NCBI RefSeq assembly: GCF_011045215.1
Contig: NZ_CP049201.1
DNA: 64,000 bases
Source: Escherichia coli
Lineage (GTDB): Bacteria > Pseudomonadota > Gammaproteobacteria > Enterobacterales > Enterobacteriaceae
Direction: 5' to 3' (one strand)
A program made the position numbers and the translations under genes. Below, in pieces: positions 29,787-43,560 of the stretch. The notes beneath the pieces were generated by a model. The model was given only the letters and a program-made list of their open reading frames with translations, ran no database searches and was not told the DNA's origin. The first letter of the stretch is position 1. Every line of letters begins with the position of its first letter.

Positions 29787-30032
29787 ATGTTCAGGAAAAG
29801 ATGTTTATTATGTTACCCGGTACTGACCGTGTTATTCTGTATTACATCCTGTGTTCCGCCAGATGAAGCGATTTACAGCGGCAGGGAACAGATTATAACA
29901 GGAGGGGCAGGTACACCGATATATAAAGAGGACAGTAAAGGACATCAGAAGCGCGATATACGAATGGAACGAATCAGGGACCATGGGTGTGAAGATAACA
30001 GTACAGACTGTGGCAGACCATTTGGCTGGTAG
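29787..30032 (+). CDS. Small putative lipoprotein
   Basis: ORF 29745..30032; internal Met gives MFRKRCLLCYPVLTVLFCITSC with lipobox-like ITSC; weak RBS. Confidence 0.3.
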   Translation: MFRKRCLLCYPVLTVLFCITSCVPPDEAIYSGREQIITGGAGTPIYKEDSKGHQKRDIRMERIRDHGCEDNSTDCGRPFGW

Positions 30033-30206
30033 TTATTGTCAGGAAGCGTCTGGTGTTTATTATTTTTATGCACACGTCGTGGCAGGGGATTAACAGAAGA
30101 TGATTTCTGATATGTGTTATTCCTGATTTTTCTCAGGGTTGCGCCGGGTGCTCAGGATATATAGCCAGGAGAATTCTTCGGGAAGAGGAGAGCCTCTTAT
30201 TTGTTA

Positions 30207-31451
30207 ATGAGAAAAGCAGAAGTGAATGACTCTTTCATCACAAAAATCCTGACAGGTAATAACGTTCTGCGTGCTGCAATTGCCCGCATTGAGTGGGTTT
30301 TTGAAACATTTCCGTCGGTATGTCTGTCTTTTTCAGGTGGAAAGGATTCCACCGTACTGTTCCATCTTGTGGCAAATGTGGCCCGCAGGAAAAAACGTCG
30401 ATTCTCTGTACTGTTCATTGACTGGGAAGCCCAGTACCAGTGTACCGTTGAACATATTCAGAAGATGCGGAATATGTACGGGGATGTGACGGAGACCTTT
30501 TACTGGGTGGCACTTCCCCTGACCACGGTAAACGGTGTCTCACAGTTTCAGCCGGAGTGGATATGCTGGGAACCTGGTGTGACCTGGGTCCGTCAGCCAC
30601 CGGAAGAGGCCATTACGGATATGGCGTATTTTCCCTTCTACCGGTATGCCATGACCTTTGAAGAATTTGTTCCGGCATTTTCTTCCTGGTTTGCCGGTAA
30701 CCGGTGCGGTGTGGCGATACTGACTGGTGTCCGTGCGGATGAATCCCTCAACCGCTTTATGGGACTGGTGTCTCAGCGTAAGCTCAGATATGCCGATGAT
30801 AAACCCTGGACCACGGCATCACCTCAAGGGTTTTACTACACCATGTATCCATTGTATGACTGGAAAGCCCGTGATATCTGGATATATAACGCCAGAACCC
30901 GTGCCATCTACAATCCCCTGTATGACCTGATGTACCGTGCCGGTGTGCCGTTACGTAACATGCGTGTCTGTGAGCCTTTTGGCCCGGAACAACGTAAGGG
31001 GCTGTGGCTTTACCATGTTCTGGAGCCGGAAACCTGGGCCAGGATGTGTGAGCGGGTGTCAGGGGCTGCCAGTGGGGCGCGTTATGCCAATGAAAGCGGT
31101 GCCTATTTTGCCCTGCGTAAACGTATATCAAAACCGGCTCATCATACCTGGCGCAGCTATGCGATGTTCCTGCTGGATGTGATGCCGGAAAGAACGGCAG
31201 AACATTACCGTAACAAAATTGCTGTCTACCTGCGCTGGTATCAAACGCGGGGCTTCCCGGACGATATCCCGGATGAACAGGAAAATGACCTGGGCTGCCG
31301 GGATATTCCGTCCTGGCGACGTATCTGTAAGACACTCATAAAGAATGATTTCTGGTGCCGGACCCTCTCCTTCAGCCCGAACAAACCCCGGCACTATGAA
31401 CGTTACCTGCAGCGTATGAAAGAAAGGAGGAAGGAATGGGGGATTCTGTGA
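30207..31451 (+). CDS. ibrA: PAPS-reductase-like (PP-loop ATPase) protein, IbrA-like
   Basis: ORF 30201..31451; PP-loop motif SFSGGKDS near N-terminus; paired with a ParB-like gene downstream. Confidence 0.8.
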   Translation: MRKAEVNDSFITKILTGNNVLRAAIARIEWVFETFPSVCLSFSGGKDSTVLFHLVANVARRKKRRFSVLFIDWEAQYQCTVEHIQKMRNMYGDVTETFYWVALPLTTVNGVSQFQPEWICWEPGVTWVRQPPEEAITDMAYFPFYRYAMTFEEFVPAFSSWFAGNRCGVAILTGVRADESLNRFMGLVSQRKLRYADDKPWTTASPQGFYYTMYPLYDWKARDIWIYNARTRAIYNPLYDLMYRAGVPLRNMRVCEPFGPEQRKGLWLYHVLEPETWARMCERVSGAASGARYANESGAYFALRKRISKPAHHTWRSYAMFLLDVMPERTAEHYRNKIAVYLRWYQTRGFPDDIPDEQENDLGCRDIPSWRRICKTLIKNDFWCRTLSFSPNKPRHYERYLQRMKERRKEWGIL

Positions 31452-32074
31452 CAGCGGAGATACTGGGTAACATGATTCGTCAGTACTTCAGCCAGGAGCG
31501 AGCAGAAGAAGAGACCATACAGGCTCTGAATCATCTGCGCAGGGTGCTGCATGAGGTCAGTCCTTTTGCACAGGAGCCTGTGGACTGTGTGCTGTGGGTG
31601 AAAGCGGATGAGGTGGTGGCCAATGATTATAACCCCAATGTCATGGCACCGGGTGAGAAAAAACTGCTGAAACATTCACTGGAGCAGGATGGGTTCACGC
31701 AGCCTGTGGTTGTCTCGGAAGAGAAGGAGCATTATCTGGTCGTGGATGGTTTTCATCGTCAATTACTGGGCAGGGAAGCAGGTACGGGAAAACGTCTGAA
31801 GGGCTGGTTGCCAGTGACCTGTATTAATCCGGACAGAAGGGGGCAGGCCTCACGTATTGCTGCGACCATTCGACATAACCGGGCCAGGGGGAAACACCAG
31901 ATAACCTCAATGTCTGATATTGTCAGAGACCTGTCACGTCTGGGCTGGACGGATGAACGCATTGGTACAGAGCTGGGGATGGACCAGGATGAAGTGCTGA
32001 GACTGAAACAGATTAGCGGGCTGACGGAACTGTTTCAGGAAGAAAATTTCAGTCAATCCTGGACTGTTAATTAA
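31436..32074 (+). CDS. ibrB: ParB-like nuclease-domain protein, IbrB-like
   Basis: 212 aa; ParB/Srx-type motif ...HYLVVDGFHRQ... and ...IRHNRARG...; overlaps ibrA 3' end. Confidence 0.75.
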   Translation: MGDSVTAEILGNMIRQYFSQERAEEETIQALNHLRRVLHEVSPFAQEPVDCVLWVKADEVVANDYNPNVMAPGEKKLLKHSLEQDGFTQPVVVSEEKEHYLVVDGFHRQLLGREAGTGKRLKGWLPVTCINPDRRGQASRIAATIRHNRARGKHQITSMSDIVRDLSRLGWTDERIGTELGMDQDEVLRLKQISGLTELFQEENFSQSWTVN

Positions 32075-32244
32075 TCGTAATGTTCCGGGGACCTCATCTT
32101 TCACAGAAATATTCTGTTCATTAGCATTCCGGTATTCGTATAACTTCTTTCTGTGGAGAGTAAACAATGCCCAGGATGCGATGGACGCTTGATCAGAAAA
32201 AACATCACGTTGCCGCATGGCGCGCAAGCGGCCTTACCCGTGAA
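32074..32244 (+). repeat. ~170-bp direct repeat, copy 1 (IS-end-like sequence plus first 26 codons of an HTH transposase)
   Basis: Near-identical to 34339..34508 (one 1-nt indel); both contain ATGCCCAGGATGCGATGGACGCTTGATCAG... Confidence 0.8.
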
Positions 32245-32342
32245 CAGTACTGTGAACTTTACGACATTCCGTTTAAATCCCTGCGCCAGTGGCCGCAGGA
32301 TGTCGCAAAAGCCGAAAAACGGCTCTTCCGCAACCTGGGTTG
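32167..32342 (+). pseudogene. Truncated HTH transposase OrfA (IS66/IS3-like), 58 codons
   Basis: MPRMRWTLDQKKHHVAAWRASGLTREQYCELYDIPFKSLRQW...; too short for an intact orfA; not in ORF track (below size cut-off). Confidence 0.5.
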
Positions 32343-32439
32343 AGATTTTCATGCCAGTGGACTCATGACCCTCTGCCTGAGTAGTTCAAATCCGGCTCGA
32401 CTGCAAAATGGCATCTGAATCGATCGCAGTTTGGCATTC

Positions 32440-33929
32440 CATATCCTTACCCATAAATCCGAGTGATGTTATTCTGTTGATAAATTAACCATAATTTAGA
32501 GGAACTATGGAAAACTGGGTTATTAAGGAGCTGGAATCTCTGAATGTTGGTGATATCAGGCTCGAAAAGCGAATAAAGCACGTTCTCAGTGTGCTTAGCC
32601 GTTCACCAAAGGAAAGTATTCCCGTATCCTGCCGTACCTGGAGTGAGACAAAAGCTGCTTATCGTTGCTTTTCCAGTGATAAAATTTCAGCCGATAAAAT
32701 CATGGCTCCCCATAAGAAAAATATCATCGAAAGGACTAAACAGTTTAAACGGGCTCTGGTTTTACAGGATACGACTGAACTAAATTATTCTGGTCAAAAA
32801 AAGAAACAGGGCGTCGGTCCCAGACGACATGAAAATGAGCGAGATTTGTTTATTCACCCTCAATTGGTTATAAGTGATTCAGGTATTTGCTTAGGGGTTT
32901 ATGATGATTATCAATGGTTCAGAAAAGAACTCAAAACTCAGAAACAAAGTCGTAAAGAAATAACTAATGATTCACTTCACAGGAAACATATCAGTGAGAA
33001 AGAAACAGGACGGTGGATAGAAGGATATAAAAAAGCAACAGAACTGGCTAGGTCCTGTCCTGATACCCAGATAATTTCTGTTTCAGACCGTGAAGGTGAT
33101 ATTTACGACCTCTTTGAGAGTGCAGAAAATGAAAGTGGGATAAAGGCTGACTGGCTCGTAAGAATGAAGAGCATTAACCGGGCTATACTGAATTCATCAG
33201 GAAAAAGAGACTCATTACTCCTGAATGAAAAAATGATGCAGATTTTGCCACAGCAGATAATTGAGTTTACCCTTCCGGAAGGACGAGGACAACCTTCCCG
33301 CAAAGTCCAGCAGGAGCTACGCTTAGCAAGGTTGACGCTACATCCACCCACCGGTCGAAGAGGAAAGTTACGTTGTTCTCCGGTAACGGTAACTGTATTA
33401 CTTGCAAAGGAAATAAATGCTCCAGAAAGTGTCCAGCCATTAGTATGGTGGCTAATGAGTAGTGTACCTCCAGAAAAGCTGACGGAACCCGCACAGCTTA
33501 TTCAATGGTATTTATTACGCTGGCAGATTGAAGTTTTCTTTAAGGTATTAAAAAGCGGATGTCAGGTTGAGAAATTACAACTTGAGACATTTGAACGCAC
33601 AAGGAACTGTCTGGCCTTATACCTTATAATCTCATGGAGAATACTTTATCTTAGCTCATTGTATAAAATGGTTCCGGAGGAACCCTGTGATTTAATTTTC
33701 GAAAAGAAAGAATATGAGTATCTCTGGATATTGGTAGAGAATACGCCTCCACCTGAAAACATACCGAATATAAGAACGGCGGTTTTAATGCTTGCAAGAT
33801 TAGGAGGATATCTGGCAAGAAAAAATGATTCGCCTCCAGGCCCTAAGACTATATGGTCAGGATTAACACAATTAATGCTGTCAATTAATGCCATAGAAAT
33901 AGCCCAGAAAACTTGTGGGTAAGGGTATG
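32440..33929 (+). mobile_element. Intact IS4-family (IS50/Tn5-like) insertion sequence with 9-bp target duplication TTGGCATTC
   Basis: Imperfect terminal inverted repeats CATATCCTTACCCATAAAT (32440) vs CATACCCTTACCCACAAGT (rc of 33911-33929); identical 9-mers at 32431-32439 and 33930-33938. Confidence 0.8.
32507..33922 (+). CDS. IS4-family DDE transposase
   Basis: 471 aa; signature YLLRWQIEVFFKVLK (Y-x2-R-x3-E-x6-K) typical of IS4/IS50 transposases. Confidence 0.9.
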   Translation: MENWVIKELESLNVGDIRLEKRIKHVLSVLSRSPKESIPVSCRTWSETKAAYRCFSSDKISADKIMAPHKKNIIERTKQFKRALVLQDTTELNYSGQKKKQGVGPRRHENERDLFIHPQLVISDSGICLGVYDDYQWFRKELKTQKQSRKEITNDSLHRKHISEKETGRWIEGYKKATELARSCPDTQIISVSDREGDIYDLFESAENESGIKADWLVRMKSINRAILNSSGKRDSLLLNEKMMQILPQQIIEFTLPEGRGQPSRKVQQELRLARLTLHPPTGRRGKLRCSPVTVTVLLAKEINAPESVQPLVWWLMSSVPPEKLTEPAQLIQWYLLRWQIEVFFKVLKSGCQVEKLQLETFERTRNCLALYLIISWRILYLSSLYKMVPEEPCDLIFEKKEYEYLWILVENTPPPENIPNIRTAVLMLARLGGYLARKNDSPPGPKTIWSGLTQLMLSINAIEIAQKTCG

Positions 33930-34032
33930 TTGGCATTCGAATCGATCATGATTTGGCATCCATCTCCGATCACAGTTTGGCATCACAATCGATCACGATT
34001 TGGCACGCTTCCGATCATTGATTGGCATCCTG
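33930..34032 (+). repeat. Tandem array of ~23-bp GATC-containing repeats (consensus ...TTTGGCAT...CGATC); a further unit lies at 32405-32439 on the other side of the IS4 element
   Basis: Successive units ...tttggcatccatctccgatc / acagtttggcatcacaatcgatc / acgatttggcacgcttccgatc...; array is split by the IS4 insertion. Confidence 0.6.
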
Positions 34033-34345
34033 CCAGTCACTCCGGGAATTAACTCTTTTCGCCACAGTCTTCATTGCCGTGTTTAAACCAATGGAGACGG
34101 CAATGTCCAGAAAGAGAAAATCCAGGAGCACTATGGAAACCTGTTTTAAGATCCTTCAGCTCAAGTTCGACCAGAAGCTGACTAACCGTTGTATCGGGCT
34201 GACATTACACATCAGCGCCTCAACCGTTTTTGAGGTTCTTGCACGCTTCAAAGCCTCTTCTCTGTCATGGCCATTACCTGCTGATATATCCCATGACACG
34301 CTGGAGAAACTCATTTTTCCGCCCAAAGACACCTTTGCATCGTAA
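34022..34345 (+). pseudogene. N-terminal fragment of an HTH transposase (possibly IS21-family IstA-like)
   Basis: ...MSRKRKSRSTMETCFKILQLKFDQKLTNRCIGLTLHISASTVFEVL... HTH-like; truncated where the ~170-bp repeat copy 2 begins. Confidence 0.35.
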
Positions 34346-34508
34346 TGTTCCGGGGACCTCATCTTCACAGAAATATTCTGTTCATTAGCATTCCGGTATT
34401 CGTATAACTTCTTTCTGTGGAGAGTAAACAATGCCCAGGATGCGATGGACGCTTGATCAGAAAAAACATCACGTTGCCGCATGGCGCGCAAGCGGCCTTA
34501 CCCGTGAA
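34339..34508 (+). repeat. ~170-bp direct repeat, copy 2
   Basis: See copy 1 at 32074..32244; here the transposase reading frame diverges after codon 26 and is followed by an IS110-family element. Confidence 0.8.
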
Positions 34509-34657
34509 AATGTAATGAACGCATCCCACACAATTAAACACGGAGCAGTATGATGGTTAAAAGGGTGAAACTGGCAGGTGTGGAGCCTCGCAGATTTCCG
34601 GCATCATAGTGCCCAATACGGGATGCATAAAGCTCCCTCAGACTGGAGACTCCACAA

Positions 34658-35677
34658 ATGAAATATACACCGGTTGGCGTTGATATCGCAAAACATGTCA
34701 TTCAGATTCACTTCATCAATGAGCACACAGGTGAAGTGGTTGATAAACAGTTGCGTAGACAGGATTTTCTGACGTTCTTCGGCAACCGTGAGCCATGCCT
34801 GATTGGTATGGAGGCCTGTGGAGGTTCTCAGCACTGGGCACGGGAACTGACAAAACTTGGTCATAAAGTCCGGTTGTTGCAGGCCCGCTTCGTTAAGGCA
34901 TTCGTCATGGGCAATAAGAATGATGTGATGGATGCCCGGGCTATCTGGATGGCGGTTCAGCAGCCGGGTAAAGAAATCGCCGTAAAAACAGAAGAACAGC
35001 AGTCGGTACTGGTTCTGCACCGTACCCGCATGCAACTGGTGAAGTTCCGGACCGCACAAATTAATGCCCTGCACGGGACGTTACTGGAGTTTGGTGAAAC
35101 CATCCACAAAGGCCGGGCAGCGATGGAACGGGAGTTCCCTGAAGCACTGGAGCGGATGAAAGAGAGACTGCCACTGTATCTCATTACAGTGCTGGAAAAT
35201 CAGTACAACAGGCTGAATGAACTGGACTCACTGATAGATGATATAGAAAAACAGCTTACCAGTGTGGCGAGACAGAATGAAACCTGTAGACGGTTGCTGG
35301 ATATTCCTGGCGTTGGTCCACTTATTGCAACGGCAGCGTTGGCCATCATGGGGAAAGCATCAGTGTTTAAATCAGGGCGAGAGTTCGCGGCTTATGTTGG
35401 TCTGGTGCCCAGACAGACAGGCTCAGGAGGAAAAATCCGCCTGCTGGGAATAAGCAAACGTGGTGATAAATATCTGCGAACCCTGTTTATTCATGGTGCA
35501 AGGGCGGCAGCATTACTGACCAAAGAACCTGGGCCGTGGATAACCGAACTGAAAAAACGTCGTCCGGCCAGCGTGGCAATCGTCGCAATGGCAAACAAGC
35601 TGGCGCGAACGGTGTGGGCAATAGCCGCTCACGGACGTAAATACGACAAAAATCATGTCAGTATCAGGCCTTATTAA
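34658..35677 (+). CDS. IS110-family transposase
   Basis: 339 aa; N-terminal DEDD-type domain (MKYTPVGVDIAKHV...) and C-terminal ...IPGVGPLIATAALAIMG...FAAYVGLVPRQ... helix-hairpin-helix region typical of IS110 family. Confidence 0.9.
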   Translation: MKYTPVGVDIAKHVIQIHFINEHTGEVVDKQLRRQDFLTFFGNREPCLIGMEACGGSQHWARELTKLGHKVRLLQARFVKAFVMGNKNDVMDARAIWMAVQQPGKEIAVKTEEQQSVLVLHRTRMQLVKFRTAQINALHGTLLEFGETIHKGRAAMEREFPEALERMKERLPLYLITVLENQYNRLNELDSLIDDIEKQLTSVARQNETCRRLLDIPGVGPLIATAALAIMGKASVFKSGREFAAYVGLVPRQTGSGGKIRLLGISKRGDKYLRTLFIHGARAAALLTKEPGPWITELKKRRPASVAIVAMANKLARTVWAIAAHGRKYDKNHVSIRPY

Positions 35678-35862
35678 TCGCTGATACCGATAAACATAAA
35701 CTCTTTACAAAAGGGTGAATGCTGAAAGGTTGCGTGGGCAGCCGTAGTGATGACAACGACAGGTAAGACCGGGACTCGCTAAACCTGAATCTGCTCTGGA
35801 GATTAAAGCTCGCTGGGAGAATAAGGCGCGAGTCAGCGTATTACATAGGGGCCCGCAGCTTC

Positions 35863-37365
35863 ATGGCTGCAACAAGGCCGGATATAGAGCTGCAACCTAC
35901 CGTCAATGTCAAAACTACGAAAGCCTTGCAAACGGGATGCGTTCATATAGAGCAGATGAAGCTCGCACGCCAGCAGCGTTTTGGTAAAAAATGCGAATCG
36001 CTGGCCGGGATGCAGCGTTCCCTGTTCGAAGAGGATGTTGACGCGGATATCGCAGAAATCTCGGCGCGTCTGGACAAACTGCTTCCTCAGACCGGGGACG
36101 AAGAAAAAACAACACGTCCTGTTCGTAAGCCCTTGCCTTCACATCTTCCCCGTGCTGAAAAGGTTATCCCGCCAGCTGAGGAACGTTGTCCTGACTGTGA
36201 TGCCCCCCTGCACTTCATTCGCGATGAAGTCAGCGAGAAGCTGGAATATATCCCCGCACAGGTTGTGGTCCACCGCTATATCCGCCCGCAGTACAGCTGT
36301 CCCTGCTGTGAGAAAGTGTTCAGCGGAAAAATGCCGGCACATATCCTTCCGAAAAGTGCTGTTGAGCCATCGGTCATCGCACAGGTTGTCATCAGCAAAT
36401 ATACCGACCATCTGCCCCTGTATCGCCAGCAGCACATTTTCTCCCGAATGGGTGTGGAGCTCCCCGTCAGTACAATGGCGGATATGGTCGGTGTTGCTGG
36501 CGCTGCACTGGCCCCGCTGGCAAAATTGTTACGCCACGAGCTTCTGACACGGGATGTTATTCATGCAGATGAAACGTCCCTGAGGCTCCTTGATACCCGG
36601 AAAGGCGGTAAATCCTGCTCCGGCTGGCTGTGGGCTTACGTCAGCGGAGAAAGAAGCGGTCCGCCGGTCGTCTGTTTTGACTCGCAGACCGGACGGGCCC
36701 TCAGATATCCTGAGGCCTGGCTGCAGGGCTGGCGTGGTGGCACGCTGGTGAGTGACGGATACAGCGTGTACAAATCTCTGGCGGATAATGACCCCGGTAT
36801 TACATCTGCCTGTTGCTGGAGCCACGCAAGACGCGGCTTCGCCAGTCTGTATAAGGCCAGCAGGGAGCCCCGTGCAGCCATGGCGCTGAGAAAAATCGCG
36901 GGTCTTTATCGCATTGAGAAGTTCATCCGTGAACGTCCTGTGGAAAAAATACGGCAATGGCGACAACGGTATTCCCGGCCGATAGTGAATGACCTGTTTG
37001 CCTGGCTTGAAGAGCAGGAGCCGTGCTGTCCGCCCGACGGACCACTAAACAAAGCGATTAATTATATCCTGAACCGGCGCGATGAACTGAGCTGCTTCCT
37101 GGGTGACGGAGCCGTGCCCCTGGACAACAATATCTGCGAGCGTGCTATCCGCCCGGTCGTTATGGGACGAAAGGCCTGGTTGTTCGCCGGTTCACTGATG
37201 GCCGGAAACCGCGCGGCACAGATAATGAGCCTTCTGGAAACGGCAAAACGTAATGGTCTGGAGCCACATGCCTGGCTGACAGACGTCCTGGCGCGTCTGC
37301 CGGAATGGCCAGAGGAGCGACTGGCAGAGTTGCTGCCCCTTGAGGGATTTACCTTCTCCGGGTGA
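35863..37365 (+). CDS. tnpC: IS66-family transposase TnpC, second distinct copy, N-terminally truncated
   Basis: 500 aa; aligns with TnpC at 8242..9780 from the ...FGKKCES... region onward (CPDCDA...CPCC zinc-finger-like, DDE core); lacks the N-terminal coiled-coil; no cognate tnpA/tnpB adjacent. Confidence 0.85.
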   Translation: MAATRPDIELQPTVNVKTTKALQTGCVHIEQMKLARQQRFGKKCESLAGMQRSLFEEDVDADIAEISARLDKLLPQTGDEEKTTRPVRKPLPSHLPRAEKVIPPAEERCPDCDAPLHFIRDEVSEKLEYIPAQVVVHRYIRPQYSCPCCEKVFSGKMPAHILPKSAVEPSVIAQVVISKYTDHLPLYRQQHIFSRMGVELPVSTMADMVGVAGAALAPLAKLLRHELLTRDVIHADETSLRLLDTRKGGKSCSGWLWAYVSGERSGPPVVCFDSQTGRALRYPEAWLQGWRGGTLVSDGYSVYKSLADNDPGITSACCWSHARRGFASLYKASREPRAAMALRKIAGLYRIEKFIRERPVEKIRQWRQRYSRPIVNDLFAWLEEQEPCCPPDGPLNKAINYILNRRDELSCFLGDGAVPLDNNICERAIRPVVMGRKAWLFAGSLMAGNRAAQIMSLLETAKRNGLEPHAWLTDVLARLPEWPEERLAELLPLEGFTFSG

Positions 37366-38140: not shown

Positions 38141-38752
38141 TCAGTGAAGGCTGACCGTATCCATAATCGTGCCATCTTCAGCGCCTTTCAGAGCGAGATT
38201 GGCTTCGTAATATTTACCTTCAGCCATTAAGCTCTGTGCACTCTTCACTTTCTGCTGAGTCTGTTTTAAAGGCATAAGCCACTGTGTTTCAGATATATTA
38301 ATTCCTGCCAGCTGCAGTTTTTCAATTGCACCTTTTTTGTCACCTTTATCCAGTTTTTTATTTGCTTCATCGATGGCTTTCTGCTTTTCTGGTGTGGCTG
38401 TAAAATCTTCTGCCAGCGTCAGTTGACTGTTAATAATGACATAAACATCGCCTTCCTGAGGGGTTTTTTTGTCTTTTCTGACCAGCTGCGCCCATGTTGT
38501 GTCTTCTGATGTTAACAATTTGTTTGCGTCATTTATCAGTTTTACAGCACCCTCCGTATCACCGCTAAAAAGAGTCAGGCGAGCATACTGAATATCTCTC
38601 ATAATATTTATGCCCCGTTGTTCCATCTTCATTTTTTCTGATGTAACAACAGGGTGATGAGCCGCTGATGTATCCTGAGTTTTTGTATCAGCAACGGCAA
38701 CGGAAGCAGCAAGAGAAGCTGCAAGGGCAATAGTGGTTAATATACGTTTCAT
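38141..38752 (-). CDS. YfdX-family periplasmic protein (putative)
   Basis: 203 aa; signal peptide (MKRILTTIALAASLAASVAVA), Lys/Ala-rich helical repeats, ...GKYYEANLALKGAEDG... motif recalled from YfdX family. Confidence 0.5.
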   Translation of the reverse strand: MKRILTTIALAASLAASVAVADTKTQDTSAAHHPVVTSEKMKMEQRGINIMRDIQYARLTLFSGDTEGAVKLINDANKLLTSEDTTWAQLVRKDKKTPQEGDVYVIINSQLTLAEDFTATPEKQKAIDEANKKLDKGDKKGAIEKLQLAGINISETQWLMPLKQTQQKVKSAQSLMAEGKYYEANLALKGAEDGTIMDTVSLH

Positions 38753-40552: not shown

Positions 40553-41065
40553 TCACTCGTTACATAACTTCTGTCCGGACTCACCATGCCGCTGTTTACG
40601 CTTCTCATTCAGTATCATCAGCCGGGTTTCTGCCTCTTTCTGCTCCTGTGGTGTCACTTCGCCGCATGGCTGCCCTTTCAGGTCGTAACGGGCGCCACCG
40701 GCCATTAACGCACGGTAATAGCGTGGGGACTGTACATAAGACGCCACCGCCGCACGTAATGCACCTGTACCAAATACCTGTTTTCTGAGGGTGATATCCT
40801 GTATCAGGTCGTCAGCTATCCCCACTTTAATTGGCTTCGGATTTTCACGGTTGAATAACTCAGGCCAGAGCTCCACAAGACGATTAATACGCTTACGATT
40901 TTTGCGCTGGCGTTTTGTCATATGCCGCCACGGTGTTTTATTCGCAGGCTTCTGTCTGTCATTCACTTGTGGTGGTATCCGTCCTTTGTGTGCTGTGTTC
41001 GTTTTATCCTGCTGTGGCTTAGCAAAAATCCCCTGCGGTTTACGGTTAATGGTCAGCGTTACCAT
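40553..41065 (-). CDS. ProQ/FinO-domain RNA-binding protein
   Basis: ORF 40553..41257; preferred start Met 41065; C-terminal ...PIKVGIADDLIQDITLRKQ...ALRAAVASYVQSPRYYRALMAGGARYDLKGQPCGEV... aligns with ProQ N-terminal (FinO) domain. Confidence 0.75.
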   Translation of the reverse strand: MVTLTINRKPQGIFAKPQQDKTNTAHKGRIPPQVNDRQKPANKTPWRHMTKRQRKNRKRINRLVELWPELFNRENPKPIKVGIADDLIQDITLRKQVFGTGALRAAVASYVQSPRYYRALMAGGARYDLKGQPCGEVTPQEQKEAETRLMILNEKRKQRHGESGQKLCNE

Positions 41066-41903
41066 CAATACTTTTACCTTATGCTGTCGTAAAAAATGGA
41101 ATCTCATCCGGGACATTTTCCGGTGGATATAAGACAGCCCGGTGTCTGTATTGTTCCTGTCACTTACGATGAGTGCATTTGTAATCAATAAATATCGGGG
41201 GTGACGGTCATCCCGGAACAAATGACTGAAAACGGCGTCAAAGTTACAGGAAAACACCGTTTATCGACACCGGACAAAAGAGCGTTGTCGGTATCCGGCT
41301 CAAAAGCAGGAATAACAATCAGCGTCATGGCGTGGTGAATGCCGGTGCCAGGTAGTCAGCAGGTAATTATTGATGGCAAGACCAAAAGGTGCGTTAAACA
41401 AACGAACCCTGTCAGTGGTGAATATGGTACAGCCCGGTGAGGTAAAATATTTTTCACTTGAACAATTTTTAAAGAACCGGAAACGAACCAAAATGGGGCG
41501 TCGTTCCCGGAAGAACTCATCTCAGACAGAGGGCCAGGAACAAAAACAGTGTGACGGAGTAAAGGACCGGGAGCTTACCGGTAATTCAGCACCGGCAGAA
41601 CAATCTTTATGCCACGTATACTCCGGATGTTCACTTATCAGCGGTCATGGCTGAATACATAGTTGTGCTGGTGATATTGATGATGTTCTGTCATGGGGAT
41701 GGCTGGTGTGTTTTGATAATCCGTAACTTGTATGCCCGCACAGAGCTGTTTCATCTGGTGGATATGACAGTGATGAAATCATGTTGTACCGCTGTTAAAA
41801 ACAGTCGTTCAGTCCTTTATGTTACCCGTTTTGGTAACAATCAGTTGGTCATGGACGTGTGAACCATCTGTGCTTCCATTGAATTTTATGGACTGATAAA
41901 GTT

Positions 41904-43474: not shown

Positions 43475-43560
43475 AATAAAGATCTGTATATTTGCTATAT
43501 ATCGATCGATACATCTGTCATATTGAGATTTTACAGATCTTTACTCTATAATGAGCAAAA
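43475..43560 (+). promoter_or_regulatory. T6SS promoter region with three clustered GATC sites in an AT-rich segment and a TATAAT -10
   Basis: GATC at 43481, 43504, 43536; TATAAT at 43547-43552; ~80 bp upstream of tssB. Confidence 0.55.

Follow-up and report, generated by a model that had tools for sequence, protein, structure and literature searches.

At positions 32402–34045 of the window (the whole 64-kb stretch of Escherichia coli DNA that was analysed), a regular array of GATC-bearing repeats is split by an insertion sequence, which raises the questions of what these repeats are and why another mobile element lies inside them.

A GATC-bearing repeat array split by an IS4-family element

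As the earlier note had described, the locus holds a tandem array of ~23-bp GATC-containing units, which we resolved into six direct units of 22–24 bp each on the plus strand. Five of these (L1–L5) follow the pattern TTGGCAT-N5-7-CGATCA, and the sixth (L6) is degenerate. L1 (32402–32428, GATC at 32422) opens with a terminal 5'-TG and carries ATGGCAT and CGATCG as its half-sites CS1 and CS2, respectively. L2 is divided over two pieces, 32429–32439 and 33939–33950, its sequence from CS1 onward being found at 33930–33950 (GATC at 33944). These are followed by L3 (33951–33974, GATC at 33968), L4 (33975–33997, GATC at 33991), L5 (33998–34020, GATC at 34013) and L6 (34021–34045), in which TTGGCAT is retained and CAGTCAC stands where the others have CGATCAC (GTCA for GATC). 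The note had counted at least five units at 33930–34032, of which four (L2–L5) are full and the fifth, L6, is degenerate, and one more at 32405–32439, a stretch that does hold L1 but also the first half of L2 with its CS1.

A tandem-repeat finder (TRF), the check that had been proposed, returned a period-23 array at 33930–34005 of the window with a score of 81. Because the strict pattern alone was insufficient, we used a looser motif together with a cluster statistic: T[TG]GCA[CT]-N4-8-GATC occurs five times within 150 bp once the inserted element is removed, compared to a largest cluster of two in 300 shuffles of the window (mean 2.3 hits in the whole 64 kb, both strands). The strict form, TTGGCA-N7-CGATC with one mismatch allowed, gave only three hits, which is not above chance by itself. 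Rfam and tRNA scans of the window gave no hits.

The interrupting element, 1490 bp at 32440–33929 on the plus strand, is bounded by 17-nt terminal inverted repeats that are 88% complementary (I9; left repeat at 32440–32456, right repeat at 33913–33929) and is flanked by a 9-bp target duplication, TTGGCATTC, with one copy in each piece of L2 (32431–32439 and 33930–33938). Its plus-strand ORF (32507–33922) encodes a 471-aa transposase with a Y-2-R-3-E-6-K motif (YLLRWQIEVFFKVLK), read in the translation as Y-LL-R-WQI-E-VFFKVL-K, together with the Pfam domains Tnp_DNA_bind (PF14706), DDE_Tnp_1 (PF01609) and Dimer_Tnp_Tn5 (PF02281), and scores 347 bits against NCBIfam transpos_IS4_3 (cutoff 160). 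A single DDE_Tnp_1 transposase with YREK and Tn5-type domains, short inverted repeats and a duplication of about one helical turn place the element in the IS4 family, close in kind to Tn5/IS50. The name ISEc13, given by one source, was rejected for this transposase, which shares only 23% amino acid identity with a RefSeq 'ISEc13 family' transposase (L050). Identical copies of the element are present elsewhere.

The array as the left end of an IS21-family element

Excision of 32440–33929 together with one copy of the duplication gave a sequence that aligns without gaps to an intact element (L001:3005-), with mismatches at 5 of 210 nt, in agreement with the earlier description of an array split by an IS4-family insertion with a 9-bp duplication. 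The intact element is 2639 bp long, has TG...CA termini and carries istA and istB, which in L001 encode proteins of 511 aa (domains rve and Mu-transpos_C_2) and 251 aa (IstB_IS21, 206 bits). RefSeq annotates both genes of the intact copies as 'IS21-like element ISSso4 family', and the name ISSso4 used here rests on that annotation. The termini TGCAAAATGG ... GGAATACGCA and unit L1 are found in L001, L002 and L009; the window copy begins with TG at 32402, and matches of intact copies from many different flanks begin at this same position. The window fragment is 97–98% identical to intact ISSso4-family copies.

At the right end of the 2639-bp element there are three inverted units (R1–R3), and the GATC-to-GATC spacings are 23, 24, 23 and 22 on the left and 24 and 22 on the right. 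On an intact copy, TRF reported period 23 with 4.3 copies and a score of 98, and also period 47 with a score of 139. Target duplications of 7 bp were seen at two loci, ACAGACG (L001) and GTCAGGG (L009), and duplications in the IS21 family measure 4–8 bp. The element thus combines the features of that family, namely an istA/istB pair, TG/CA ends, ~23-bp bipartite inverted end repeats and a short target duplication, the first and last of these being seen in the intact copies. The left-end sequence was matched in 1872 of 5426 complete E. coli genomes, at up to 37 places per genome, and the array was always the first ~140 nt of the 2639-bp IS, in many different flanks.

With high confidence, the repeats make up the terminal inverted-repeat region on the left of an IS21 insertion sequence of the ISSso4 family. 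One candidate of the earlier note had been a set of transposase-binding repeats at the left end of an IS21-family element, and the note had also remarked on an istA-like fragment beyond the array; the intact copies substantiate the former, and ~69 codons of istA from 34133 the latter. Since a known IS21-family element has this unit as its terminal repeat, an outcome that the note had itself foreseen as overturning its proposal, the array is ordinary, an already known textbook IS21-family end. The practical consequence is one of annotation: where 23-bp tandem repeats rich in GATC precede an istA fragment, they should be interpreted as IstA-binding end repeats and not iterons.

The terminal repeats of IS21 are direct and recur every 23 bp; in each there are two conserved regions, one read by HTH-2 and the other by HTH-1 of IstA, and integration requires two repeats per end (PMC10122671). 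ISSso4 shares with the IS21/IS5376 ends resolved by cryo-EM of IstA–DNA complexes (L1-L2(-L3) and R1-R2; PMC10122671) the ~23-bp direct repeats at both ends, the order CS1–variable spacer–CS2, the TG/CA ends and the position of istA after the left end. It differs from them in the number of units, with five full ones and a degenerate one on the left and three at the right end, where two at each end are enough in vitro, and in its half-sites, TTGGCAT and CGATCA; the IstA contacts proposed here are carried over from IS5376. Each ~23-bp unit is bipartite, with an outer CS1 (TTGGCAT), ~6 variable bp and an inner CS2 (CGATCA), and, by analogy with the solved IS5376 IstA–DNA complex, would hold one IstA monomer, HTH-2 on CS1 and HTH-1 on CS2. 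L1, with its terminal TG, would be held by the catalytic IstA subunit and L2 by the structural one, and L3–L6 may be accessory sites; GATC itself belongs to CS2. The same plan, with 4–5 left and 2–3 right units at a 22–24-bp period and half-site sequences of their own, recurs in six relatives at 40–47% IstA identity (ISPsy14, ISEc12, ISAs29, ISBmu3, ISFK1 and a Legionella element). Scanning the intact ISSso4 left end for sigma-70 promoters gave no hits.

GATC sites within the repeat units

With its five GATC sites, spaced regularly at 22–24 bp over 95 bp, and its position beside a region (24000–32100) that matches IncF plasmids, the array could also suggest an iteron-like or SeqA/Dam-controlled region, such as an origin of plasmid replication or a switch for phase variation, lying next to IS fragments by coincidence; a Dam-sensitive iteron-like region had been the other candidate of the note. 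We consider this extremely improbable. The units are integral to a 2639-bp mobile IS found in thousands of contexts, whose opposite end carries them in inverted orientation. The array has transposase ORFs for neighbours and no rep gene beside it, and relatives built on the same plan have half-sites that lack GATC (CCGGACA in ISPsy14, GTGAACA in ISAs29). In addition, GATC belongs to the CS2 half-site and is found there in relatives from Burkholderia and Bradyrhizobium, hosts that to our knowledge lack Dam, so the iteron/Dam reading is not supported.

E. coli methylates GATC, and the ends of IS10, IS50 and IS903 are Dam-regulated, with one or two GATC sites overlapping either the promoter of the transposase gene or the inner end. 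ISSso4 resembles these elements in carrying GATC inside the transposase-binding end sequences of an enterobacterial IS; unlike them, it has GATC in each of eight repeat units, within the recognition half-site, and the same holds for homologues from non-Dam hosts. The GATC in each unit might have the second function of making ISSso4 transposition Dam-sensitive, IstA binding or cleaving hemimethylated ends better, as in IS10/IS50. One GATC within CS2 in every functional unit at both ends would fit such a function, as would the contact of HTH-1 with this half-site in the major groove in IS5376. We nevertheless regard it as rather unlikely, as the half-site has the same GATC (TGATCA) in ISBmu3 (Burkholderia) and ISFK1 (Bradyrhizobium), whereas ISAs29 from Dam+ Aeromonas has GTGAACA instead. 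From this comparison of sequences, GATC looks like an ancestral part of the recognition site and not an adaptation to Dam. In the literature searched, no link between IS21-family elements and Dam was described; one paper that names both 'IS21' and 'Dam methylation' (PMC8764528) is unrelated to the question of IS21 ends.

Target sites of the IS4-family element

The insertion of the IS4-family element into the array seems not to be a random hit. Perfect 9-bp duplications of the element were found at five kinds of site. Within ISSso4 it has entered L2 (TTGGCATTC) and L4, the latter in both forward (TTGGCATCA) and reverse (TGATGCCAA) orientation, in each case with a perfect duplication and, among the unit junctions, solely at the two with a GATC spacing of exactly 23; one genome carries three copies of the element in three different ISSso4 copies. 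Unit 4 of ISEc12 has also been hit, again with a perfect duplication (ATAACATCG). The intact target sites in atoE and ydgT read GATC-TCGGT-AAATCGGTA-ATGGC-GATC and GATC-AATA-TGTATCGTG-CTGCC-GATC, respectively, and for both genes the unseen arm was predicted before it was read.

This recurrent insertion, always between GATC sites 22–23 bp apart, points to a target rule. We propose, with a probability of about one half, that the 1490-bp element and its relatives down to ~55% identity are target-specific insertion sequences that enter midway between a pair of GATC sites whose starts lie 22–23 bp apart, with IS21-family ends as their main landing pads, a rule that is apparently undescribed. The target would have the geometry GATC-N4/5-[9 bp duplicated]-N5-GATC, and IS21-family ends, in which the GATCs of CS2 recur every 23 bp, would supply exactly the pair needed. 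The proposal draws on natural insertions that survived selection, with two full sites (atoE and ydgT) outside the IS21 family.

GATC-bearing arrays of IS21-type ends also harbour relatives of 57% and 55% identity, which come from environmental metagenomes and lie in the homologous place, the CS1 of an inner unit. For the 57% relative the duplication appears to be 7–8 bp long and the GATC spacing is 21 bp, so the geometry varies within the clade, and a relative at 40% identity (P0121) has ordinary Tn5-like ends with no GATC-pair flanks. With the right end of the element, an exact-pattern scan of genome contigs gave 0 hits and a metagenome scan gave five loci with no new site type; the cluster variants P0002, P0005, P0009, P0013 and P0015 yielded no new non-IS21 sites. 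Sites of the right spacing that are unoccupied include GATC pairs 1–2 and 2–3 of ISEc12 and window positions 43481, 56438 and 60292.

Could the element instead have landed in the array once, by chance, with its other occurrences descending through inheritance, horizontal transfer or ISSso4 gene conversion? The L2 insertion with identical junctions is common to many genomes (ST131, NCTC86, VR50, 357900) and to decayed fragments that have the same outer flank; shared junctions were judged by long-piece matches and direct alignments, the 99-nt junction query being too short and too diverged. However, the perfect duplications at L4 in both orientations, in ISEc12, in atoE and in ydgT cannot have one event as their source. 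Moreover, ISSso4 variants 5% apart carry identical copies of the element: the window and strain 357900 agree at 1490 of 1490 positions of the element, and at only 94.9% of those in the adjoining 412 bp of ISSso4. A single landing, which L025, L026, L018/L023 and L020 contradict, is hence very improbable.

Alternatively, the element may be drawn by IS21-family ends that are bound or bent by IstA, and not by the GATC pair itself. Ten places with the identical transposase were sampled and seven of them are IS21-family left ends, and the insertions of the 57% and 55% relatives would agree with this as well. Against it, atoE and ydgT are not IS21 ends but have the same flanking GATC pair, and ISSso4 units with a 22- or 24-bp GATC spacing and a near-identical CS1 were never hit in this sample, which leaves attraction by IstA an unlikely explanation.

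IS4 targets AAA-N20-TTT, and IS231A prefers the ends of Tn4430. The present element is like both in combining a cut-and-paste IS4-family transposase with short symmetric signals outside the duplicated bases, and like IS231A/Tn4430 in having its preferred natural target inside the end of another transposon. It is unlike them in its signal, a GATC pair 4–5 bp outside the 9-bp duplication, and in being Tn5-like by domain content rather than a member of the IS4 subgroup; the word GATC is absent from the review used for this comparison. If choice by GATC pair holds, it would be a simple and testable case of a Tn5-like transposase whose target choice is arm-directed, making the element a 'parasite' of the transposase-binding sites of another IS, and it would account for the repeated occurrence of ISSso4::IS4 and ISEc12::IS4 composites beside E. 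coli adhesin islands, ST131 included. As the signal is a Dam site, the choice of target might vary with the state of methylation, and a site-selective insertion tool, exploitable or methylation-gated, is conceivable.

The window copy and the surrounding insertion sequence cluster

Compared to intact ISSso4 (Shigella sonnei and E. coli), the window copy is a dead relic of which only nt 1–441 are left, and these are interrupted; blastn of the intact element against the window matched only nt 1–38 and 30–441. Downstream of L6, the remaining plus-strand segment (34046–34341) comprises the leader (34046–34132) and the 5' fragment of istA, whose start at 34133 was taken from the RefSeq annotation of L001 and which ends at element nt 441. 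The Tn5-like element was inserted into CS1 of L2 with its 9-bp duplication, moving L1 1.5 kb from L2–L6, and an IS66-family element later removed all ISSso4 sequence beyond nt 441.

On its left, the ISSso4 end adjoins an IS66-family left end (copy A, GTAATGTTCC..., 32077–32401, plus strand) at 32401/32402; this copy contains a small tnpA-like ORF (32167–32343; NCBIfam IS66 TnpA model NF047593) and forms direct repeats D1/D5 with 34339–34508. A second IS66-family left end (copy B, 34342–34508, plus strand) truncates istA and is itself cut at ~34508, upstream of a plus-strand IS110-family transposase ORF (34658–35677; NCBIfam transpos_IS110, 331 bits, and Pfam) that belongs to the same nested IS cluster. 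An IS66-family tnpC follows at 35863–37365 on the plus strand (NCBIfam transpos_IS66, 439 bits, and Pfam). The neighbouring match to IncF plasmids extends over 24000–32100 of the window.

Structure of the interrupted array

Direct reading of 32000–34800 showed an IS66-type left end starting at 32077, a first array piece (TGCAAAATGGCATCTGAATCGATCGCAGTTTGGCATTC) at 32402–32439, a 1490-bp inserted element at 32440–33929 (bounded by CATATCCTTACCCATAA ... TTGTGGGTAAGGGTATG, inverted repeat I9) and a second copy of TTGGCATTC at 33930–33938, after which come four more units of the form TTTGGCAT-N5-7-CGATCA and a fifth carrying GTCA instead of GATC. TRF reported a period-23 array at 33930–34005 (score 81), and with the element excised a loose form of the motif occurred five times inside 150 bp of the window, against a biggest cluster of two in 300 window shuffles. 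The GATC-containing tandem repeats that the earlier note had described are therefore real, and the coordinates it gave were approximately right, being off by a few bases.

Joining 32402–32439 to the sequence from 33939 onward produced a gap-free alignment with the intact element of E. coli MS 200-1 (L001:3005 onward; 5 mismatches in 210 nt), and the added DNA therefore consists exactly of the 1490-bp element and a single copy of the 9 bp, which proves insertion into the array. The 471-aa ORF of the inserted element contains Tn5-type DNA-binding, DDE_Tnp_1 and Tn5 dimerisation domains and scores 347 bits on NCBIfam transpos_IS4_3. ISEc13, the name given to this transposase by one source, was rejected, as the two are only 23% identical.

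The repeats are the left end of an ISSso4-family element

Compared with 5426 complete E. coli genomes, the rejoined array gave matches in 2049 records from 1872 of them, with as many as 37 places in a single genome; it also matches 438 plasmids, some of them from Salmonella, Shigella and Klebsiella. Genome matches always start at the TG of 32402, irrespective of the left flank. Intact copies, labelled ISSso4 family in RefSeq, are 2639 bp long, start with TG, end with CA and encode istA (511 aa) and istB (251 aa, IstB_IS21); 7-bp duplications flank them at two loci. Read inward, the right end holds three like units, TGCGTATTCCGCTCTATTCGATCACGG, ATTGGCATCGAAGTCCGATCAGCG and ATTCGCATCCATTCGATCAACC, and the GATC spacings are 23, 24, 23 and 22 on the left and 24 and 22 on the right.

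According to a cryo-EM and biochemical analysis of IS5376, IS21-family terminal repeats are direct repeats (L1/L2 and R1/R2) 23 bp apart, each with conserved outer (CS1) and inner (CS2) half-sites around a more variable stretch (~10 bp in IS5376); IstA reads CS1 through HTH-2 and CS2 through HTH-1, repeat 1 holds the catalytic and repeat 2 the structural subunits, and integration requires two complete repeats (PMC10122671). The window units agree with this plan in each respect, with CS1 = TTGGCAT, CS2 = CGATCA and a period of 22–24 bp, and by homology ISSso4 IstA would bind units of this type. The match to intact ISSso4 ends, together with the inverted units at the right end, bears out the first interpretation in the earlier note, namely transposase-binding repeats at an IS21-family left end. 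A known IS21-family element has this unit as its terminal repeat, and the array itself is therefore not new and of little interest.

The alternative proposed there, a Dam-sensitive iteron-like region, found no support, as the repeats are an integral and mobile part of the IS, the units recur inverted at its opposite end and there is no replication gene nearby.

The ISSso4 leader also contains a 9-bp inverted repeat, CATTGCCGT (34072–34080) and ACGGCAATG (34097–34105), enclosing GGAG and, ~30 nt ahead of the annotated start of istA (34133), an upstream ATG in the same frame (34103); the repeat could form a hairpin controlling translation.

GATC as a probable part of a recognition half-site

A tblastn search of ISSso4 IstA against plasmids revealed a gap between the ISSso4 group (at least 95% identity) and relatives at 40–47%. 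The ends of six relatives have 4–5 left and 2–3 right units with a 22–24-bp period and half-sites of their own: ATTCCAC-N-ATCCGGACAC in ISPsy14 (Pseudomonas), ATTCCGG-N6-GTGAACAC in ISAs29 (Aeromonas), AATAAC-N-GAGATC in ISEc12 (E. coli), TTTCGG-N6-GTGATCA in ISBmu3 (Burkholderia), ATTTCNG-N2-GATCGTGAGCA in ISFK1 (Bradyrhizobium) and ATTATCGC-N6-GTGATCA in an unnamed Legionella element. GATC lies in the inner half-site in the elements from Burkholderia and Bradyrhizobium, hosts that are not known to have Dam, and is absent from the element of Dam+ Aeromonas; on the simplest reading, GATC belongs to a recognition half-site that these elements have inherited and is not a Dam device. Methylation may incidentally affect IstA binding in E. 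coli; a literature search found no paper linking IS21-family elements with Dam.

In ISEc12, ISAs29, ISBmu3 and the Legionella element (L004, L005, L006 and L008), extra units in inverted orientation lie within the left direct-repeat block, for example AATAACATCGATGGAGATCAC...GTGATCTCCATCAATGTTATT in ISEc12; obvious units of this kind are absent from ISSso4.

A proposed GATC-pair target preference of the IS4-family element

The junction at the second left unit (L2) also occurs in E. coli 357900, NCTC86, ST131-type genomes and decayed fragments. ISSso4 is full-length in 357900, with its own 7-bp duplication, and the flank left of its TG differs between the window, 357900 and the NCTC86 group. 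The IS4-family element is identical between the window and 357900 at 1490 of 1490 positions, while identity is only 94.9% over the 412 bp of ISSso4 next to it.

Contigs encoding the identical transposase provided a sample of ten insertion places. The duplication was TTGGCATTC in unit L2 at L024 and L027, TTGGCATCA in unit L4 in the same orientation at L025, and TGATGCCAA in L4 in the opposite orientation at L026; L024–L026 are three different ISSso4 copies of one genome (GCA_014105865.1). At L018 and L023 it was ATAACATCG, which is CS1 of unit 4 in ISEc12; this element belongs to the IS21 family like ISSso4 but has a quite different repeat sequence. L019/L021 (C5 type), L022 and L034/L036 are recombinant forms whose flanks consist of mixed or inverted pieces of ISSso4. 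On an ENA metagenome contig (L020), a single copy has ydgT on its left and atoE on its right, genes that lie far apart in a standard E. coli chromosome, implying that a long segment between two earlier insertions was deleted or inverted.

These places share a pattern, GATC-N4/5-[9 bp]-N5-GATC, in which the 9-bp duplication lies between two GATC sites 22–23 bp apart (from window 32422–33947, L018–L027, L033 and L049). It fits GATC-GCAGT-[TTGGCATTC]-GAATC-GATC in ISSso4 L2, GATC-ACAGT-[TTGGCATCA]-CAATC-GATC in L4 (hit in both orientations), GATC-GCTGA-[ATAACATCG]-ATGGA-GATC in ISEc12 unit 4, and chromosomal sites in atoE and ydgT. We predicted beforehand that the uninterrupted atoE and ydgT targets would carry the missing GATC, and both did: GATC-TCGGT-[AAATCGGTA]-ATGGC-GATC and GATC-AATA-[TGTATCGTG]-CTGCC-GATC, respectively. 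With GATC at ~1 in 250 positions and two offsets allowed, we estimate a probability of ~0.008 that an arm carries it by chance, and one of the order of 1e-9 for the four atoE and ydgT arms jointly. Within ISSso4, the only junctions hit were the two with a GATC spacing of exactly 23; none of the sampled places lay in the 24- and 22-bp junctions, where CS1 is nearly the same.

Relatives of the element add to this picture. The insertion of the 92% Salmonella relative reads GATC, 13 nt, IS, and that of the 74% relative IS, 13 nt, GATC. The 57% relative, from bog metagenomes, occupies one site in both orientations, GATC-GGCAA-[ATAATTA]-CGACT-GATC, within the left end of an IS21-family element rich in AT and with an apparent 7–8-bp duplication, and the 55% relative adjoins an IS21-type terminus in reverse complement, TGCGCATTCCAC...CGATCAGAGATTCCACTTG, again at CS1 of unit 2, then N5, then GATC. 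In the 40% relative, the ends are ordinary Tn5-like ones and no such GATC flank is present. Both the 57% and 55% relatives (metagenome contigs L051–L060 and L063) have ends CATATCGTTACCC... and lie within GATC-bearing end arrays belonging to other members of the IS21 family.

A target preference of the IS4-family element for GATC pairs best explains how the array came to be split, as read from natural insertions only. The cue for the transposase may be the bases, their methyl groups or DNA shaped by IstA; because of the atoE and ydgT sites, we favour direct, IS21-independent recognition. A literature search returned nothing on a GATC target for IS4-family elements. It is the rule-like, repeated insertion between GATC pairs by a Tn5-like element that makes the finding a little more than routine.

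Outside the array, GATC pairs 22–23 bp apart also lie at 43481, 56438 and 60292 (~0.3 expected from the 101 GATC in the window), with an insertion in none of the three; GATC density in the window is 1.6 per kb, low for E. coli.

Rearranged forms of the interrupted ISSso4 occur among L012/L019/L021, L022, L034 and L036/L037. In one, the IS4-family element is inverted and ISSso4 nt 39–76 are missing; in another, two inverted copies of nt 1–38 flank the element; a third has a 47-bp (two-unit) deletion. Together, they suggest that IS4-family copies recombined or that slippage occurred in the array. The left IS66/ISSso4 junction of the window (gctcgac|TGCAAAATGG) is also present in L036/L037, with a YfdX gene downstream.

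The window copy and its surroundings

Only nt 1–38 and 30–441 of ISSso4 remain in the 64 kb, and the window array is a non-functional fossil within an IS nest, since L1 is apart from L2 and transposase, istB and right end are lacking. The istA fragment meets an IS66-family left end at 34341/34342, the sequence of which is also found at 32077–32244, and an IS110-family transposase gene (34658–35677) and IS66 tnpC (35863–37365) follow. Two direct copies of the IS66-family left end (32077–32401 and 34342–34508) bracket the ISSso4 fragment, the second itself being cut upstream of the IS110-family ORF (stretch 34509–35700), making a four-level nest downstream of ibrA/ibrB-like genes (30201–32074).

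The 80-aa N-terminal IstA fragment (34103–34342) scores 58 bits, below cutoff, against NCBIfam NF038385 ('IS66-like element accessory protein TnpA'). At the NCTC86 locus (L010 6730–9384), RefSeq places the start of an 884-aa 'IS66 family transposase' in this 5' part of istA, which reflects either gene fusion or an artefact of annotation.

Elsewhere, the window carries an MFS transporter, an M20 peptidase and an AraC-like regulator (1–6.3 kb), an IS66 transposase (8242–9780), a chaperone-usher fimbrial operon (~11.7–21.5 kb), glycosyltransferases, YfdX (38141–38752), a ProQ/FinO-like gene (40553–41257) and a type VI secretion cluster with TssC, ClpV, VgrG and a lipase-like effector (~43.6–61 kb); there were no tRNA or Rfam matches in 1–64000. 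The stretch 24000–32100 is 99.5% identical to E. coli plasmid pCeylon31IncF and a plasmid of strain C5.
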